This document shows positions 2,521 to 36,833 of a stretch of DNA of 64,000 nucleotides, piece after piece. The translations under genes were made by a program, and so were the position numbers. The first letter of the stretch is position 1; each line of letters starts with the position of its first letter. The stretch is from positions 64,001 through 128,000 of IMG/VR virus record IMGVR_UViG_2907202186_000003. One strand, 5' to 3'. The notes under the pieces are model-generated. The model was not told the origin of the DNA, made no database searches, and saw only the letters and a program-made list of their open reading frames with translations. This DNA comes from a virus (taxonomy: Duplodnaviria > Caudoviricetes).

Positions 2521-2946
2521 TTATGCGTACAAAGCTAATTCATTAAATCTAATAAATTGCCCCCGCTTCTTATGTATATTATAAATGTGCTGCGGATCTT
2601 CGCATCTTAGGTTTTTCAGATTAAAATCGCTTATAGGCTCTTGCAGAAGCCTTTCCAGGGCTACCATTTTGTTTAAATGAAACGCTGTCTCAAATTCCCT
2701 TGCTGATTGATATCCTTCTTCTAAAATCTTTTTCTTTCTAAGTTTAATTAAGTACCGATTTATATATTGAACATCCCTTTCTCTGCAATCATTTATAAAC
2801 TCATCTTGCTCTTGGAGTGTTACGCACAGAAAAGATATAGTTTTCAACAGATTAATTGCCTCGCCGCCGATACCTAAAGTTATCATGATTTCTTCTAGCA
2901 TAGAGCATTCTCCTTTTGAAGTTATGTTTCTGGTGATAGACCTCAC
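2521..2946 (-). CDS. Hypothetical protein
   Basis: ORF track; likely starts at MLEEIM after AAGGAG. Confidence 0.6.
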   Translation of the reverse strand: MRSITRNITSKGECSMLEEIMITLGIGGEAINLLKTISFLCVTLQEQDEFINDCRERDVQYINRYLIKLRKKKILEEGYQSAREFETAFHLNKMVALERLLQEPISDFNLKNLRCEDPQHIYNIHKKRGQFIRFNELALYA

Positions 2947-3100
2947 CTTCTTGTTTGAGATAATAAATCTTAATATAATTATAAATCACAGCTAGAATTA
3001 GGCAATCAAATTACATAACTGATGAATAATTGTTGACATCATAGGTAAGCTGGTAATCTCAGTCATTTTTTGTCGCCAAATGTCGAATCACAACTTATTA

Positions 3101-3114
3101 GGAACATTTGTTCT
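3101..3114 (-). promoter_or_regulatory. LexA (Cheo) SOS box near +1 of a TTGATT-17-TATAAT promoter
   Basis: AGAACAAATGTTCC fits the GAACRNRYGTTC core. Confidence 0.7.
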
Positions 3115-3204
3115 GTTATGATTATACTATTGCCAAAAGGTATAATCAATTACTTTTATTTATTATTTATATCTCTATATTTATTTTAATTGGGTGAAGT
3201 GATA

Positions 3205-3591
3205 CTACTTTTGTCGTAACAAAAGAATACACTTCTTCACTTGCTCCAGTCTTGATGCAGCTATTGTAATAAAACGGCTTTTCATCTCATCTATATAGAG
3301 ATACATATTTTTCTCATCTATAGCTTTAACCTTATTCAAATTCGCCATTGCACCTCTATCGGTTCTAACAAACCCGTCTATCTTTTCAAACAGTTTAAGA
3401 GTATGTTCGACTCCATTTGCATCTATGTATTCACCATCTAAGGTCTGAAAAACAAAAATAGATTTTCCTGGTTTACCTTCAGAGTAACCTCCAACAATAT
3501 CGTTGACACTGAGCCAAATTGCTTCTTCTGAAACCTTTTTTCCTTCTCTTTTCACTACTCTGATTTCCTTGCTCACTTTTGTTGCCCCCAA
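3205..3591 (-). CDS. Stand-alone LytTR DNA-binding regulator (no receiver domain)
   Basis: FVRTDRGAMANLNKVKAID matches the LytTR FxRxHRSxxVNxxxI motif; last gene of the agr-like operon. Confidence 0.75.
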   Translation of the reverse strand: MGATKVSKEIRVVKREGKKVSEEAIWLSVNDIVGGYSEGKPGKSIFVFQTLDGEYIDANGVEHTLKLFEKIDGFVRTDRGAMANLNKVKAIDEKNMYLYIDEMKSRFITIAASRLEQVKKCILLLRQK

Positions 3592-3600
3592 TTTAACATT

Positions 3601-3639
3601 TACTTGCGTCTATTTTCTTTTGGTTAAAAGACGCAAGTA
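3601..3639. repeat. 11-bp inverted repeat between agrD and the LytTR gene
   Basis: TACTTGCGTCT-17-AGACGCAAGTA. Confidence 0.75.
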
Positions 3640-3653
3640 CATATTATTTTGTT

Positions 3654-3779
3654 TTATTTAAGTTCTTCTGGCACTTCTTCGGTGCCCAGAATTGTCCAAC
3701 TTGCGGTACTTGTAACAGTTACCGCAATAGCGGAAAGAATTGTTCCAAACATCAGTGCCAGTTTATTCATCTTTTGCAT
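3654..3779 (-). CDS. agrD: AgrD-like cyclic lactone autoinducer propeptide (41 aa, missing from the ORF track)
   Basis: MQKMNKLALMFGTILSAIAVTVTSTASWTILGTEEVPEELK; RBS AAGGAGGTGA; hydrophobic leader, AS-x4 core and EEVPEEL tail; overlaps the end of agrB. Confidence 0.88.
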   Translation of the reverse strand: MQKMNKLALMFGTILSAIAVTVTSTASWTILGTEEVPEELK

Positions 3780-4317
3780 TTCTCATCACCTCCTTTTCAG
3801 AATATACAATTCTAATTAGGGAAAGCGACTGAAGAAAAAAGGCCAGTGTTAAGATGTTGCTGTGTACAATGAAATTTCCTGCAATAATCATTAATGAAAC
3901 TATCTTTAGATATATAAAATTCTCTTCTTTTATTCTAGTTTGCTTCTTAATATTTGAAGGAGCAAATATCACTACAAGAACAAGACTTGCAATATCTATA
4001 ATTGTTTTGATGTTTTGTATTAACGGGCTCACCATTACGATTGTATACACTAGAACAACTGAAACAACTATGCAGACTTCAGCTGATTTAATATGATATC
4101 CGCCAGAAAACATTCTAAGTATGCTAAACCCTAATAATGCAATCATTACTTCTGGAAATATTCGCAATAACATTGAACTAACAATTAAAACTAATATCGG
4201 TGTAATATTAGATATTAGAAACTTAATTGAATATCTAACTATAGACACTGATGGCAATTCATTTGGATATCTCTTTTTTAGATAAACACTCAGTTTGTCG
4301 CTTATATCATTAATCAA
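3763..4317 (-). CDS. agrB: AgrB accessory gene regulator (AIP-processing peptidase/cyclase)
   Basis: LRMFSGGYH...C catalytic motif, FAPS motif, multiple TM segments. Confidence 0.92.
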   Translation of the reverse strand: MINDISDKLSVYLKKRYPNELPSVSIVRYSIKFLISNITPILVLIVSSMLLRIFPEVMIALLGFSILRMFSGGYHIKSAEVCIVVSVVLVYTIVMVSPLIQNIKTIIDIASLVLVVIFAPSNIKKQTRIKEENFIYLKIVSLMIIAGNFIVHSNILTLAFFLQSLSLIRIVYSEKEVMRNAKDE

Positions 4318-4960
4318 TTTCGCCCCTCATTTCTTTTTTGACTTCCATAAACAATAGATTAATTAAACAAATTAACCAAAACAACAATCCAGTGTAAATG
4401 TTATCTATCGATGAAGCTTTACTAATTACGAAAATTCCCAGTATCGTTGCAATAAATATCAGCATATTGGGTCGACTTGGCTTAAATTTAAATGAATAGG
4501 AATAGGGTAGATTAGTCATCCAGATTCTTTTCTTTCTCAGAAATAAACTTAATGCAATCGTCCCAATATCACCAATCACTTGTACAGGATATTTTATGTA
4601 ATCATTACTTTTGAGTTCATTAAGATTAATATTTAACGCTAGACATGAAACTGAAATAACTAAACCCAATATTAATGTTTGTGCTAAAAATCCTAATCCA
4701 GCAATTCTAAAGGAAGAAAACAGCGAAATCCTAAAAAAGAACAGTAAGGCCGCCATAAATATTATTAGGTTTAATAGAGGTGAGAGATTGGATAATATAA
4801 TGTTTTCTGAATAAAAGTATGTTCCAATTGATATTACTATATTCGTTATTATAATTTCTTTCCAATAATCAACTATCTTTATTCTAAAGAAGCCAAAAGC
4901 AAAGAAGAAAATTGCCATTCCATCGATCATCGAAAAGAGTATGTATACTAGCGCATTCAT
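4310..4960 (-). CDS. About 6-TM membrane protein resembling an AgrC sensor domain, with no kinase domain
   Basis: 216 aa, entirely hydrophobic helices; overlaps agrB; no HisKA or HATPase region. Confidence 0.65.
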   Translation of the reverse strand: MNALVYILFSMIDGMAIFFFAFGFFRIKIVDYWKEIIITNIVISIGTYFYSENIILSNLSPLLNLIIFMAALLFFFRISLFSSFRIAGLGFLAQTLILGLVISVSCLALNINLNELKSNDYIKYPVQVIGDIGTIALSLFLRKKRIWMTNLPYSYSFKFKPSRPNMLIFIATILGIFVISKASSIDNIYTGLLFWLICLINLLFMEVKKEMRGEID

Positions 4961-5003
4961 TGTTTACCCACCTTTAAAGTAAATATATTAATAACTTGTT
5001 TAT

Positions 5004-5032
5004 AATATATCATGGGCTATTTTTACTGTCAA
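5004..5032 (-). promoter_or_regulatory. sigmaA promoter of the agr-like operon
   Basis: TTGACA-17-TATATT with extended TG. Confidence 0.7.
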
Positions 5033-5068
5033 TATATAAAACAAAAAAAGATAGAATAAGTTATGCAC

Positions 5069-6076
5069 TTATTCTATCTCGTAAACTTTTTTTATTGTTT
5101 CTTCATTGAGAAAATCCTTCGTGTACCTACTATATGCATAAAACTCATCCGCATGTGTTTGTTTTCCAATATTATAGTACTCACAAATGGTTATTATCTC
5201 ATCTCTTCCGAGTGAGCCTTTGGATTCATATAATTCTTTTGCCATATATAACATTCCAGAATTTCTAATATTGATTGCGCTGAGATGTTTTAGCCCTTTC
5301 CATACACCAATATTCTTTAATCTTCTCAATACCAGATGCTTATCTGCTTTCTCGTTTGCTGTAGCCCTACGCTTAACGGATCTAATAATATATGGGCTAT
5401 CAGCTAACTCCACTACAGGACTTTTAGCGGTACTATGTCCATTGTCTTGACTATAGTCTTTTTGCTCTGCAGCTCTTATTAATAATGCCATCAGATGTTC
5501 AGATATTTTAATAGTTCTTTTCTCTATTTCACCATTTTTCAATTCATTCTTAAGCGTAGCTGTACTCTCGTCAATATTCAAATCATTAATTGTTAAGTTT
5601 AATAATTCGCTATACTCTCTTCCGAATATTCCCTCAAATAAAGCTAAAGGGATAACTGAATCTTGCCAATTCTCTAAATCACCAATTATATCTTTTAGTT
5701 CTTCATTAGTAATCAATAATTTATTAGTCTTATCTACAAATTTCAAATAAAAACCCGAACTTCCCATGATATCTAGAGGATTTAAATTATCATCTCTGAG
5801 ATCCTGGCTTATAGCCCATCTAATGTAGTTTTGAATAATTGATCCACTGCCATTGGCAGATTGCAATGTTTTAGGAGCAAGATAACTCAATAGATCTTCT
5901 ATTTCAAACAAACTAAAGTTATACAAATCCTTACCTAGTCTTTCTTCAAGCTTGCTGGCTCTTTTGAGTACACGTAGGTATGTTGTATACGTGTTTTCAT
6001 TAAGTCCTTTTAAGAACCTTGTTTTTTGTTCTTCGTTATAGAGATAATCATTGTAAACTACATTAGACAAATCCAC
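5069..6076 (-). CDS. yopR: MrpR/YopR(SroF)-like master repressor, degenerate tyrosine-recombinase fold
   Basis: YNEEQKTRFL, KDLYNFS, LFEG..G..YSEL, IRNSG; HxxR degenerate; follows the yopQ-like gene. Confidence 0.8.
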   Translation of the reverse strand: MDLSNVVYNDYLYNEEQKTRFLKGLNENTYTTYLRVLKRASKLEERLGKDLYNFSLFEIEDLLSYLAPKTLQSANGSGSIIQNYIRWAISQDLRDDNLNPLDIMGSSGFYLKFVDKTNKLLITNEELKDIIGDLENWQDSVIPLALFEGIFGREYSELLNLTINDLNIDESTATLKNELKNGEIEKRTIKISEHLMALLIRAAEQKDYSQDNGHSTAKSPVVELADSPYIIRSVKRRATANEKADKHLVLRRLKNIGVWKGLKHLSAINIRNSGMLYMAKELYESKGSLGRDEIITICEYYNIGKQTHADEFYAYSRYTKDFLNEETIKKVYEIE

Positions 6077-6105
6077 TCACCCCATCTAGTTAAATCTAAT
6101 AAAAA

Positions 6106-7422
6106 CTAATTTCTAAAGTAATTAATTACTTGATTTCTAACTCGATTTGAATTAATTCCACTTTTGTTATTTAAAAGCTCAATCAATTTGCTATCGTTAA
6201 AATCAACTAGCTTCTTTAGATTTTTTATCTCTGACGTATCTGTGCTAGTGTCTTTAAAGTTCTTCGCTATTTGAATATAACCTAAAAACATTAAAGGATG
6301 GTTAATATAAGATTTTCGATGCGGTTTTGGATTATTAATAAACTCATCATTGAAGTTACCAGTTAAATAATTAAAGAATTCAGTTAAATAATTAGCTACT
6401 TCTTTATATTCTAAAAAATTATTTGGTGAGAAAACTTTTTCAATTCCATACGCCATTATATCAAAAGTAGTCAATTGTCCAGCAATTTCACTAATATTAG
6501 CAGCTGAAGCAATTTTGTTACCTTTCAATTCTGATTTTTGTTGTAAATCTCTTACTACAGCATCTGACCAATTTTCTGATTTAAGTTCACGCAATCTCTG
6601 CTTTTTAACAACATTAATTGTATTTATCTGTCCAAAGTACTTCTTTGCGATATCAGTATCATATGACCTTATAGATAGAAGCAGTTCAAGATCTAAGTCA
6701 GGGTTAATTGCAAGTGCTTTTACAGCGCCCTGGAGACGATGAAATCCATCAAGAATAGAAACTGTTGCTCCATCATTTATCGTTAGCAATTTATTCTTTT
6801 CGTCATAGCTGAGCGGTTCAACTTCATTAGAGTAGACATTTATTGTAATCATATCAGGTAAATAAGATTGTTCTAGCATGTTCTTTGCTATATCATCAAC
6901 GCTTTTCTTGTTTACGTCAGGAACTGGTACAACGCCATTCTTCCCCATCTTATATTTAGCACTACGTTGAGTTTCATAATCATATACGATAAGCTTAGCA
7001 TGAAACATCTCTACAAGTAATTTTATACTTACTTTAGTTAAAAATGTTTGATGATCTATACTCACTACTTCCTCTAAATCTAGTGGTAAATTAAGTGACT
7101 TTCGCACAGAATTATCTCTTACTTTTTCTTTAGATTTTTCTAGTTCCGTTTCAGAAACATATTCTTGTGTAATTATTCTTTTGTCCTCAGTTACTTTATA
7201 GACTGCATCAGAAAGCACGATAAGTAAGTTTAAATCAATGTCAGATAATGAATTATTTCCTCTCGCAACATCATTAAAAAAACCAAGATTAATTCCTTGC
7301 TGATCGAGAGAATTATTTATCTTCGCGGCGAATTTCGTACTATGTTTATTCTCATCAATAACATCTCTGAGTTGAGCTTCAAGTTCCTCTCTGTCTCGTT
7401 TCAAATGCTCACACCTCTCCAC
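6106..7422 (-). CDS. yopQ: YopQ(SroE)-like DGQHR/DndB (ParB-like) protein
   Basis: ILDGFHRL motif, YDYETQR; synteny with yopR. Confidence 0.75.
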   Translation of the reverse strand: MERCEHLKRDREELEAQLRDVIDENKHSTKFAAKINNSLDQQGINLGFFNDVARGNNSLSDIDLNLLIVLSDAVYKVTEDKRIITQEYVSETELEKSKEKVRDNSVRKSLNLPLDLEEVVSIDHQTFLTKVSIKLLVEMFHAKLIVYDYETQRSAKYKMGKNGVVPVPDVNKKSVDDIAKNMLEQSYLPDMITINVYSNEVEPLSYDEKNKLLTINDGATVSILDGFHRLQGAVKALAINPDLDLELLLSIRSYDTDIAKKYFGQINTINVVKKQRLRELKSENWSDAVVRDLQQKSELKGNKIASAANISEIAGQLTTFDIMAYGIEKVFSPNNFLEYKEVANYLTEFFNYLTGNFNDEFINNPKPHRKSYINHPLMFLGYIQIAKNFKDTSTDTSEIKNLKKLVDFNDSKLIELLNNKSGINSNRVRNQVINYFRN

Positions 7423-7504
7423 TATGTACTACTAATAAGTATAACATATTTATAATTCTTAATACACATAGGACCAAAAAAATCCAGCTTGAAGTGTGTT
7501 GATC

Positions 7505-8511: not shown

Positions 8512-8718
8512 ATGTCATACTTATTTATCAATCTTCAATACATATTAGATAAGAAGAATATTAGTGCCAGAGAGCTGGCTAAAAGAACTGGTATTCGTCA
8601 TCCTACAATTTCTGAAATGTGCAACAATAGTTCAAAGCATCTGCCACTAAAAAATATAGCGTTAATTTGTGATGAGTTAGAAATCGATGTCTCCGACTTA
8701 CTCATTCTAAAGAAGTAA
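8512..8718 (+). CDS. Cro/C1-type (XRE) HTH regulator
   Basis: ISARELAKRTGIRHPTISEMCNN HTH. Confidence 0.88.
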   Translation: MSYLFINLQYILDKKNISARELAKRTGIRHPTISEMCNNSSKHLPLKNIALICDELEIDVSDLLILKK

Positions 8719-8815
8719 ATAATAAAAGCTCCAGATCTAATTAGACTGGAGCTTACAATAAATAAATCTTCATAAACATACCTCCGATTTATTTATATTC
8801 ACCTCTACTTGTCGT

Positions 8816-9232
8816 CTATCTACTAAACATCCGAGTTGTACTAATTTCCAAAGCTCTCAACAATTGATTTTCGTACTTATGTGGCATTTCAAATAGTTTA
8901 TACATCAATTTGCTTTTTTTATCGATCGTAAAGTGCTGTTCAAACAAAATAACGCTGTCCTTCTTAAATCCTGCATCTGAGGCATTAACGGTAACATGAG
9001 TAGGTATCCTTGCTTTTGTGGAACTGCTTGTTATAGGAGAAACCATTACCAATGGAGAATATCTATTGTTTTTATCATTTGAAATAATAAGTACTGGCCG
9101 CACACCTCCTTGTACAGATGATTTCTCAGGAATCTCTCCCAAATCAGCCAACCAGATTTCAAATTGCTTTACTTCTTCATTATGTACTGTGTTATTCATT
9201 GCTACTGCCATTTTATTAACACTCCTATTCAA
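8816..9232 (-). CDS. mazF: MazF/PemK-family endoribonuclease (orphan)
   Basis: EIWLADLG...QGGVRPVLIISND..N..SP....PITS...IPTHV, NdoA-like; catalytic Arg and Thr present. Confidence 0.9.
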   Translation of the reverse strand: MNRSVNKMAVAMNNTVHNEEVKQFEIWLADLGEIPEKSSVQGGVRPVLIISNDKNNRYSPLVMVSPITSSSTKARIPTHVTVNASDAGFKKDSVILFEQHFTIDKKSKLMYKLFEMPHKYENQLLRALEISTTRMFSR

Positions 9233-10340: not shown

Positions 10341-10700
10341 CTAACCTGAATACTTATTCGCAGTAATTGGGTAATAAAATATTTCTATTTCCTCACTAAT
10401 AAACCCTCTGCGTTGTGCAGCTAAAAGCGTTTCATACATGTTCTTACGTCCAACTGGATTATCTGTATGCAAATATATCTTATCGACTTGTAATCCGTAT
10501 TCGCAAAAATATTTAACTAAATCATATCCATTTTGAAGCTCATGTCCGTTCTCATCCTCACCCAAGTCATGATCTAAGGTCAGTATATGTACCCTTTGTG
10601 ACTCAAGGATACTTATTGCCTCATGATAGGTTCGCGCTACTACAAAACCCTCTGGGCAATCACGTAGATCGTCTACATATAGGTTTATTTTCTGATCCAT
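10341..10700 (-). CDS. Cyclic-phosphate-processing receiver-like domain protein
   Basis: LYVDDLR..P, LDHDLG, GYD, HTDNPVG motifs; start MDQK after AAGGAAG. Confidence 0.75.
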   Translation of the reverse strand: MDQKINLYVDDLRDCPEGFVVARTYHEAISILESQRVHILTLDHDLGEDENGHELQNGYDLVKYFCEYGLQVDKIYLHTDNPVGRKNMYETLLAAQRRGFISEEIEIFYYPITANKYSG

Positions 10701-10735
10701 TTGTTCTTCCTTTCCCATAAAACTTGCATTTCATC

Positions 10736-14337: not shown

Positions 14338-14667
14338 CTAGTCCCTTGGATAGTTAACTTCCATTATGTCCATAAATGGCACCTTAGTGATAACACCATC
14401 TTTCTTGATATGCACCTTTCCCGTCCGAGAGTCCATTTGATCGATTTGCCCCCTAACAGACTCTTCCCAACCCCACACGGTTAATACAATTTCTGATTCC
14501 TCTTGGTAGGCTTCGGTGAGTTGATTTCCTAACTCCTCAAGTACAAACTCATCTCTTGTTGGTCTCTTTGCTACCTTAGATTTTGCCATCATTAATGCCC
14601 TCCTAGCTGTCGAATTCAGTACGCAAGAGTTGAAATGGCGACCTAAACGTTTCTGTTTGATCGCCAA
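14338..14667 (-). CDS. yolD: YolD-like family protein (likely starts MMAKSK)
   Basis: RP..DE..LEE....L.EA...G.I..D......I pattern; RBS AGGAGG before MMAK. Confidence 0.65.
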   Translation of the reverse strand: MAIKQKRLGRHFNSCVLNSTARRALMMAKSKVAKRPTRDEFVLEELGNQLTEAYQEESEIVLTVWGWEESVRGQIDQMDSRTGKVHIKKDGVITKVPFMDIMEVNYPRD

Positions 14668-14673
14668 GAAAAT

Positions 14674-15033
14674 TTAATTATTATTCAATCTTTCTGTGAT
14701 TTCTTTTATCTTTGAACGAGCAACATTGAGCTGTTCGCCATCTTTAAAAATAACCATTCCGTTAGCCTCATCAACATATTTCACTTGTTCAAGATTAATC
14801 ATAAGATCTCTATCGGCCTGTAGAAACCCTTTTTCAGCGGAATAATACTCTGCCAAATCTTGAAACGTAGCAACCTGACTATATCTGGCTCCGTTTGTGG
14901 TTGTATATACGGGTACTTTTTGACCCTTAATTATTTTTATTGAAACATGACTCACATCTTCAAGTTTGAAATCTTCAATCGATCCTGTATCATGATTATA
15001 TCCGACCAATTCATTTGTTGTCATCGATGTCAC
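14674..15033 (-). CDS. Second stand-alone LytTR protein
   Basis: FLQADRDLMINLEQVKYVD...VARSK. Confidence 0.7.
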   Translation of the reverse strand: MTSMTTNELVGYNHDTGSIEDFKLEDVSHVSIKIIKGQKVPVYTTTNGARYSQVATFQDLAEYYSAEKGFLQADRDLMINLEQVKYVDEANGMVIFKDGEQLNVARSKIKEITERLNNN

Positions 15034-26698: not shown

Positions 26699-26760
26699 TT
26701 TGTCAACCCTCCATAATCGGATAAAATGAGTATTTCTTTTAACGATTTAGTTATATTATT

Positions 26761-26789
26761 ATTATATTTACTTTATAATAAAATGTCAA
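26761..26789 (-). promoter_or_regulatory. Consensus sigmaA promoter facing the accessory array
   Basis: TTGACA-17-TATAAT. Confidence 0.8.
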
Positions 26790-28104: not shown

Positions 28105-28138
28105 ACAATCGCCTCCTATGTATTGACTTTATATTTTT

Positions 28139-28167
28139 ATTATATTTATTTTATTGTTTAAAGTCAA
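28139..28167 (-). promoter_or_regulatory. sigmaA promoter
   Basis: TTGACT-17-TATAAT. Confidence 0.7.
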
Positions 28168-29031: not shown

Positions 29032-29463
29032 TTAGACTATATAGTATTTGCTTTCCTTCTCTGTGATACGTCTAAACTTAAATAACACCTCTACAGGTTC
29101 ATTCACAACATTTGAAACCCTAATCATTGTTTGAGCATCCAAATTGCCATCAGAAAGAATCTGATTAGCTCTTTGCTTAGTAACTCCTAAAGCTGCTCCT
29201 AACTCTTCCTGAGTAATTCCCTTGCTTTTAACTACTTCCTTCGCTGCATTCTCGAAACCTTCGTTTCTAAATATGGCTAGTTGCTTATCAATGTATTTAC
29301 TTGCTTTTGGACTGAGGTAAATTTCTTTGCATTGATTACACTGGATAGCTGGAATATGTTCGATAACAAACGTCTTACCATATTCCTGGTGTTCCATTGT
29401 ATGAAGAATATCAGTTAAATCTTTTGAGCCACACTCTACACATTTTGACATTAAAGTACCCAT
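29032..29463 (-). CDS. YgiT/MqsA-type Zn-finger plus HTH antitoxin
   Basis: CVECG...IPAIQCNQCKE.Y and ITQEELGAALGVTKQR. Confidence 0.8.
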   Translation of the reverse strand: MGTLMSKCVECGSKDLTDILHTMEHQEYGKTFVIEHIPAIQCNQCKEIYLSPKASKYIDKQLAIFRNEGFENAAKEVVKSKGITQEELGAALGVTKQRANQILSDGNLDAQTMIRVSNVVNEPVEVLFKFRRITEKESKYYIV

Positions 29464-36753: not shown

Positions 36754-36833
36754 CTTTGCAACCTCCCTTCGATTAATTACATTTTATCATTATAATGAAA
36801 ACAAAGTCAATAAAATAAAAATATTAATATCGA

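Follow-up and report, generated by a model that had tools for sequence, protein, structure and literature searches.

Sensing of a peptide by means of a two-component phosphorelay has its textbook example in the agr system, as known from Staphylococcus aureus (agrBDCA). The agr3 genes of the C. difficile phage phiCDHM1 encode AgrB and AgrD together with a full AgrC kinase as sensor and no regulator, and the same study remarked AgrB, AgrD and membrane proteins without HATPase domain in the phages Abouo, Davies and Emery, where the LytTR gene was not recognised and no function was assayed (Hargreaves et al. 2014, PMC3901668). Signalling by a stand-alone LytTR regulator co-encoded in an operon with a membrane protein, without a phosphorelay, has its only known precedent in the LytTR regulatory systems of S. 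mutans, HdrRM and BrsRM (Zou et al. 2018, PMC6193735). SPbeta and phi3T use a third type of system, arbitrium (AimR-AimP-AimX), which relies on a linear peptide that is imported. Here we analysed a stretch of 64,000 nucleotides (hereafter the window; positions 64,001 to 128,000 of the IMG/VR record IMGVR_UViG_2907202186_000003), which corresponds to positions C11:228723-292722 of a 6.6-Mb, 99.99%-complete genome. It holds a cassette of four genes encoding a membrane protein, AgrB, AgrD and a LytTR-only regulator, which is a kinase-less and receiver-less variant of agr, real, intact, conserved and partly noticed before. The cassette lacks both halves of the phosphorelay and yet is conserved, with a diversified peptide.

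The region is, on sequence grounds, a large SPbeta-like prophage of Paenibacillus, the genus in which the window proteins have their closest named relatives. The lysogeny module of the SPbeta type is present, with YopQ followed by MrpR/YopR, a protein of inactive tyrosine-recombinase fold, in the yopQ-yopR order of SPbeta. The four genes of the cassette follow this pair, all on the minus strand and intact (Table 1). The sequence-only reading of the window had described a promoter, a protein with six transmembrane segments, AgrB, AgrD and a LytTR-only regulator downstream of yopQ/mrpR, and the Pfam and NCBIfam matches and the coordinates agree with this description, apart from the number of helices discussed below. 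The absence of a histidine kinase and of a receiver, which it had also claimed, was borne out: the cassette has no match to either domain, HATPase_c_5 (PF14501) has no match within the window, the nearest lying about 366 kb away on the same contig, and the regulator, with 123 amino acids (aa), is too short to hold a receiver domain. The membrane protein itself gave no Pfam (E<=0.1) or NCBIfam match, and a kinase domain was not found in it. Arbitrium had likewise been reported as missing from view, and neither SPbeta AimR nor the Pfam model PF22871, which matches B. subtilis as a control, retrieved an AimR from the whole genome at E<=1.

With canonical agr the cassette shares the His/Cys dyad of AgrB, an AgrD in which a ring of five residues precedes an acidic xPxEL tail, a membrane protein with several helices and of the size of the AgrC sensor domain, and a LytTR protein whose nearest solved relative is AgrA. 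The best solved relatives of the LytTR family profile are the LytTR domains of S. aureus AgrA (E=0.002, residues 19-107). It differs from canonical agr by the lack of a histidine-kinase domain on the membrane protein and of a receiver on the regulator, by its ring nucleophile, which is Ser (lactone) instead of Cys, by the order of its genes (membrane protein, B, D, regulator), and by a membrane protein without detected sequence similarity to the AgrC sensor. AgrB keeps the catalytic His-x6-Cys dyad within an R..SGG.H......C motif, as do 12 of 13 cassette AgrBs, that of phage Harrison having one residue fewer between His and Cys. AgrD fits the build of such precursors (amphipathic leader, Cys or Ser plus four ring residues, acidic tail) and reads ...TASWTIL-GTEE-VPEELK, with a Ser and four further ring residues ahead of an acidic tail of the P-x-E-L type, and its ring-to-tail spacing corresponds to that of S. 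aureus AgrD; the predicted ring is a Ser-Trp-Thr-Ile-Leu lactone, followed by the GTEE-VPEELK segment. Among about ten related prophages the ring occurs in at least six forms (SWTIL, SWTLI, SWALF, SWTIV, SWTVI and SWTLV), a variation which fits what specificity groups would look like. AgrD-like precursors are present in nearly all cassettes, most of them with Ser and two with Cys.

The layout of precursor, maturase, membrane protein and regulator also resembles that of small bacteriocin loci, and the strong promoter of the operon looks constitutive. The peptide could accordingly be imagined as a bioactive product (an antimicrobial or an exclusion factor), the membrane protein as its immunity protein and the LytTR protein as a local regulator. 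We consider this barely credible, since the precursor scores above the cut-off of the AgrD cyclic-lactone autoinducer model and has the canonical ring-to-tail spacing; to our knowledge, the AgrB/AgrD products characterised so far are signals. The autoinducing peptides (AIPs) published for P. polymyxa were ruled out as products of the cassette, their core being ICFGLF, with a Cys, and their loci canonical agrABCD.

Within this SPbeta-like prophage the cassette is an accessory module at the hub of lysogeny control. All the near relatives that were looked up display the same order, from DndB and MrpR through the membrane protein, AgrB, AgrD and LytTR to a gene of the 141-aa type and the replication genes; relatives of the cassette also lie on IMG/VR viral contigs of 127-152 kb. 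The near relatives of the membrane protein are 38-78% identical. Prophages diverged to this extent carry these four genes behind mrpR in an unchanged sequence, and the arrangement is hence not due to chance. In a broader sample of 401 Paenibacillaceae genomes, a match to MrpR was obtained in 39, and 30 of these loci were examined. The cassette stands immediately after mrpR in eight of them, five in the order of the window and three in a permuted order (AgrB, membrane protein, then an AgrD-like peptide and LytTR) belonging to three distant lineages with MrpR identities of 33-37%; the AgrD-like peptide was detected in one of the three permuted loci and LytTR in two. In several of the loci without cassette, mrpR is directly followed by a homologue of the 141-aa gene. 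From this distribution, with the cassette after mrpR in some loci and the 141-aa homologue directly after mrpR in others, it follows that the cassette is an optional insertion at a fixed spot of the lysogeny hub, held there across deep divergence.

The membrane protein is the candidate peptide sensor. Its AlphaFold2 (AF2) model, computed from an alignment of 14 sequences, has a predicted local distance difference test (pLDDT) score of 78 and displays seven long helices; the protein is thus a membrane protein as first described, with about seven helices in the place of the six initially counted. The positive-inside rule suggests that its N-terminus lies outside and its C-terminus inside. A profile search through 1.8 billion representatives returned a family of 290 members, and the 150 members listed are all stand-alone proteins of 73-247 aa, mostly 205-247; no longer, fused forms were found among them, nor in a separate search for relatives with a kinase, the latter being weak evidence. 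When 43 members of the family are compared, conservation is lowest in the loops predicted to lie outside (1.5-1.8 bits vs 2.0-3.7 for the inside loops) and highest at positions of helix 1 and of the face predicted to lie inside (R26, Y32, R77, W147, P152, K209 and E210). For the ESM Atlas model of the protein, the first matches beyond its own family are HATPase_c_5 (AgrC-type) kinases: 193-204 of the 216 residues align to their N-terminal membrane domain, with a TM-score of 0.65-0.71 by query. The likeness is taken as a lead only, because it is shown by the ESM models alone and the AF2 model did not reproduce it.

These elements lead us to favour, tentatively and with a confidence that stops a little short of even, a reading of the cassette as a self-contained agr-type peptide signalling module devoid of both phosphorelay domains, in which a bare AgrA-like output is gated by direct contact. 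The operon would be driven by its own strong promoter, perhaps held by the phage repressor at a motif resembling the MrpR site of SPbeta (SPBRE). AgrB would cut and cyclise the 41-aa AgrD into the small lactone, with or without a short tail, which would then be released. The membrane protein, with about seven helices, the size and the predicted shape of an AgrC sensor and no kinase, would bind this peptide on the outside and alter the availability or the activity of the AgrA-like LytTR protein, in the simplest case by retaining it at the membrane until its release, as in the streptococcal systems. The LytTR protein, freed or silenced, would in turn change transcription from phage or host promoters. 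Sensing by the membrane protein, together with the holding and release of the LytTR factor, was already proposed in the sequence-only reading and is partly supported: it fits the AgrC-like ESM model, the AgrA-like regulator and the place of the cassette after mrpR in two different orders. If true, this reading would show how a cyclic peptide can be sensed without phosphorylation, and would provide the first ligand for the orphan systems made of a LytTR protein and a membrane protein.

Several results weigh against it. The relation to the AgrC sensor was not recovered by other means: aligned by hhalign with the sensor domains of 30 Paenibacillaceae AgrCs, the membrane family reached a probability of 0.3%, no better than an AgrB control, and hmmsearch for the same link gave E=3.6. 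The AF2 model did not retrieve the AgrC-type likeness, its best TM-score in the Atlas shape search being 0.41; against the PDB, Foldseek returned nothing at E<=0.001 and VIA-align a best Z of 7.2 (Pex3), a value that helical proteins reach by noise, and nothing significant was obtained against BFVD. A sequence-profile search of the PDB with the membrane protein gave no match either. The comparison with the LytTR regulatory systems, with which the cassette shares a stand-alone LytTR gene and a membrane-protein gene placed in one operon, is also imperfect. Their regulator gene lies upstream of the inhibitor gene, whereas in the cassette the membrane gene opens the operon and the regulator closes it (third and fourth in the permuted order), and their positive autoregulation involves 9-bp direct repeats, 11-13 bp apart and about 10 bp upstream of the -35, which were not found at the cassette; it therefore shows neither of these two hallmarks. 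The LytTR-type 9-12-9 direct repeats were not found in the lysogeny region of nine loci, nor was any shared repeat with a period of 19-23 bp, and there is no room for an activator site upstream of the -35 of the operon because the mrpR terminator and its T-run abut it. Moreover, the inhibitors of the LytTR regulatory systems belong to known families (e.g. DUF2154) and the membrane protein of the cassette to none of these; neither a ligand nor peptide genes are known for those systems, whereas the cassette has AgrB and AgrD. The cassette is furthermore optional, 22 of the 30 MrpR loci being without it. Finally, the membrane gene is tied most tightly to agrB, which it overlaps, and not to the LytTR gene: among the 30 best loci of the membrane family, AgrB is directly downstream in 30 and a LytTR-only gene accompanies them in 24. 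In one genus, five loci retain the trio of membrane protein, AgrB and AgrD with no LytTR gene next to it, and two of those five genomes are without any cassette-type LytTR match; one further locus likewise has no adjacent LytTR.

This close tie to agrB, the persistence of the trio without an adjacent LytTR gene and the fact that AgrB and the membrane protein are still neighbours in the three permuted MrpR lineages are what would be expected if the membrane protein were not a receptor but a helper in the production of the peptide, its export or tolerance to it, for instance by removing the leader or by transport with AgrB, the peptide being sensed elsewhere and the LytTR protein acting as an ordinary, unregulated factor. 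Canonical agr does require, besides AgrB, another membrane protease to deal with the leader of AgrD (in S. aureus, SpsB or MroQ), which also speaks for such a role. On the other hand, no protease or transporter family was matched in Pfam, NCBIfam or the PDB profile search, there is neither His nor Cys among the 30 most conserved positions of the membrane protein, and kinase sensor domains are the only structures which it was found to resemble; in size and number of helices it agrees with an AgrC sensor. We regard the accessory role as decidedly unlikely and retain the gated LytTR module as the favoured reading.

The position of the cassette invites a comparison with arbitrium, with which it shares the location of peptide communication genes beside the yopQ/mrpR module of a phage of the SPbeta type. 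The promoter of SPbeta aimR carries the SPBRE of MrpR (PMC10516654), and the cassette has an SPBRE-like motif past the -10 of its operon. The proteins are unrelated, and the linear imported peptide of arbitrium differs from the cyclic exported peptide, sensed at the membrane, which is proposed here; arbitrium lies upstream of yopM, whereas the cassette is downstream of mrpR. A role in lysis-lysogeny is suggested by position alone, after mrpR and before what looks like an early gene under SOS control, in a phage group without AimR, and we consider it rather unlikely. The complete scenario, in which arbitrium-less SPbeta-like Paenibacillus phages would communicate by the cassette, with a lactone pentapeptide, phage-specific rings and a kinase-less receptor of seven helices gating a bare LytTR protein to tip the lysis-lysogeny switch controlled by MrpR, is unlikely in our estimation. 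If true, the cassette would be a candidate replacement of arbitrium in large phages of the SPbeta type and a second, mechanistically unrelated phage "language".

The cassette is not peculiar to this prophage. It is common among small temperate phages and on the chromosomes of Paenibacillaceae, and part of it had been noted in 2014 (PMC3901668). The membrane-protein family is found in 131 of the 401 Paenibacillaceae genomes, a third of the sample, often in two or three copies, and in several phage lineages. Some cassettes are plainly chromosomal, for instance beside glyQS or spore-germination genes. In one cassette (L031, G247:C24) a 240-aa protein made of two tandem LytTR domains replaces the single one, and on a contig of the Marinicrinis type (L017) the cassette is immediately preceded by another paralogue of the membrane protein (E=6.5e-24).

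The genome that carries the prophage also has a canonical agr locus about 770 kb away (at about 999.5-1002.3 kb of C11, in the region C11:998043-1002500). It encodes AgrB, an AgrD whose ring reads CWWIA and a 420-aa kinase of the AgrC type, together with a receiver-LytTR regulator in divergent orientation. This coexistence raises the possibility of a host-manipulation module, in which the phage, through its peptide and its receiver-less AgrA-like protein, would disturb the host agr system or tap it, the benefit coming through the behaviour of the host and not through a decision communicated between phages. The regulator of the phage being closest, among solved structures, to the DNA-binding domain of AgrA is in line with it, and the cassette also occurs on chromosomes away from phage genes and is therefore not intrinsically a phage decision device; the agr genes of phiCDHM1 have been interpreted as host manipulation (PMC3901668). 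Nevertheless, no host-type AgrC was found with the query used in 39 of 49 cassette-bearing genomes (a hand tally over overlapping samples), which argues that the cassette does not generally need a canonical AgrC. The phage and host AgrBs are only 22% identical, their rings differ in nucleophile (Ser vs Cys), and the cassette brings its own sensor-like and regulator genes, in a place after mrpR which is kept across deep divergence. Host manipulation appears quite improbable against this background, and the self-contained module remains the reading we prefer. The host agr locus adjoins, by eye, a NusG/LoaP-like gene and an acyltransferase gene of the polyketide type, and because of these neighbours it is suggested to control a secondary-metabolite cluster.

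The same four genes are present in the Brevibacillus phage Abouo (gp44-47) and the P. larvae phage Harrison (gp38-41), near integrases in the lysogeny region. The first gene in both belongs to the membrane-protein family (E about 1e-30), and Abouo gp47 and Harrison gp41 are LytTR-only proteins (PF04397, about 1e-6), which are annotated as "peptidase" or "dipeptidyl aminopeptidase". This peptidase label appears in the phage records, in one phage-genome paper and in PHROG 15081 (phrog_15081), and the present assignment corrects it in the Abouo and Harrison records and in that PHROG family. Davies, Emery and the P. larvae phage Paisley were matched through AgrB only. These phages measure 44-59 kb and have an integrase and CI/Cro-type control, whereas the phage of the window is SPbeta-like with the YopQ/MrpR pair. 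The membrane protein, AgrB and the LytTR protein each have their PHROG family. A DNA search of phage records with positions 3000-7500 of the window gave no match, and neither did tblastn of the membrane protein against phage records; only the PHROG and hidden Markov model (HMM) searches tie the membrane protein to Abouo and Harrison. The literature on Paenibacillus AIPs deals with canonical agr loci of the Cys type, and the phage-genome papers list AgrB only in tables and give the LytTR gene as a peptidase; no account of the four-gene unit, its location next to MrpR or its broad spread on chromosomes came to light.

Table 1. Position of the cassette genes, of the repressor pair and of the associated signals in the window.
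Feature	Position	Strand	Evidence or remark
yopQ-like gene, DndB domain, first of the repressor pair	6106..7422	-	PF14072 E=2e-9; phrog_5732 E=3.9e-107
mrpR/yopR-like master repressor gene, tyrosine-recombinase fold	5069..6076	-	MrpR_N_CB PF22822 E=1.6e-28; MrpR_C_cat PF22823 E=8.9e-17
Intrinsic terminator of mrpR, 14-pair stem then T-run	5048..5080	-	Stem and T-run in the sequence
Operon promoter TTGACA-17-TGnTATATT, extended -10 TG	5004..5032	-	11/12 matches
A/T-rich 19-mer just past the operon -10, candidate operator	4976..4994	-	Conserved in 9 loci
Copies of the A/T-rich 19-mer	4976-4994, 26756-26774, 28134-28152, 29285-29303, 36812-36830		<=3 mismatches
Membrane protein, 216 aa, candidate peptide sensor	4310..4960	-	phrog_15604 E=1.2e-12
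AgrB, peptidase and cyclase processing AgrD	3763..4317	-	PF04647 E=1.3e-21
AgrD precursor, 41 aa	3654..3779	-	TIGR04223 E=6.9e-5, 22.9 bits vs cut-off 19
Strong hairpin between agrD and the LytTR gene	3602..3638	-	Enclosing intergenic fold with free energy (dG) -20.5, z -6.1
LytTR-only DNA-binding protein, 123 aa	3205..3576	-	PF04397 E=2e-5, above cut-off
Next transcription unit, 141-aa gene without known family	2521..3149	-	Own promoter 3149-3121; second promoter 3005-2978

The signals around the operon are also conserved. A hairpin and T-run equivalent to the mrpR terminator was recognised by eye in nine of nine related loci, and the operon promoter, located 10-15 bases past this terminator, is kept at the same position in related loci. 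The A/T-rich motif starts with CAAATACATAT... in most relatives and resembles the first half of the SPBRE of SPbeta, the MrpR site, which is CAAATACAAAWAATATGTAT in the SPbeta sequence; MrpR binds SPBRE, including that of PaimR (PMC10516654). In the version of the window, the motif has five copies with at most three mismatches vs 0.34 expected, and three of the four copies other than that of the operon are near promoter-like sequences, two overlapping a -10. Judging from these occurrences, the 19-mer may be the MrpR site of the SPbeta-like Paenibacillus phage group. Inside the operon, agrB begins before the membrane-protein gene has reached its stop, and agrD in turn begins before agrB ends. 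The hairpin between agrD and the LytTR gene is found in eight of eight phage loci with unrelated stem sequences, and is probably an internal attenuator or a stabiliser of the RNA 3' end.

The open reading frame of the LytTR gene extends to a TTG at 3591; the product called in the source has 123 aa, and the GTG at 3576 is the probable start. A second stand-alone LytTR protein of 119 aa (14674-15033, minus strand; PF04397 E=1.6e-9) is encoded among the early accessory genes of the prophage, beside a 109-aa gene (14338-14667). A LytTR-like frame was also noticed by eye in the early region of a related phage contig (L014:154-489), and a third LytTR-only frame occurs on the chromosome at C11:691690.

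The transcription unit that follows the cassette has a LexA-type box (GAAC-N4-GTTC, 3113-3102) just past its -10, a direct repeat TCGACA-N5-CGACA at 3086-3071, with one copy in the window vs 0.03 expected, and TGTCAA motifs. This layout of LexA-type box, repeat and second promoter is shared by the related loci L003, L004, L006, L009-L011, L014 and L020, and across the window and the related loci the gene encodes 122-155 aa and belongs to no known family. From these signals, the 141-aa gene looks like an early gene under the control of the SOS response and of another regulator.

On the other side of the repressor pair, a gene for a toxin of the PemK/MazF family (8816-9232, minus strand) is convergent with a small Xre-type helix-turn-helix (HTH) gene (8512-8718, plus strand), the toxin family being assigned by eye and from PemK_toxin matches of the gene at the same position in related loci. 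There is no obvious antitoxin gene upstream of it, and the toxin/HTH arrangement (8512-9232) is kept upstream of yopQ in related prophages. Further upstream, a 125-aa protein (10341-10718, minus strand), which starts ...KINLYVDDLRDCPEGF, is kept in all the related prophages, and its counterpart in the related locus L005 has a match to cREC_REC (PF20274).

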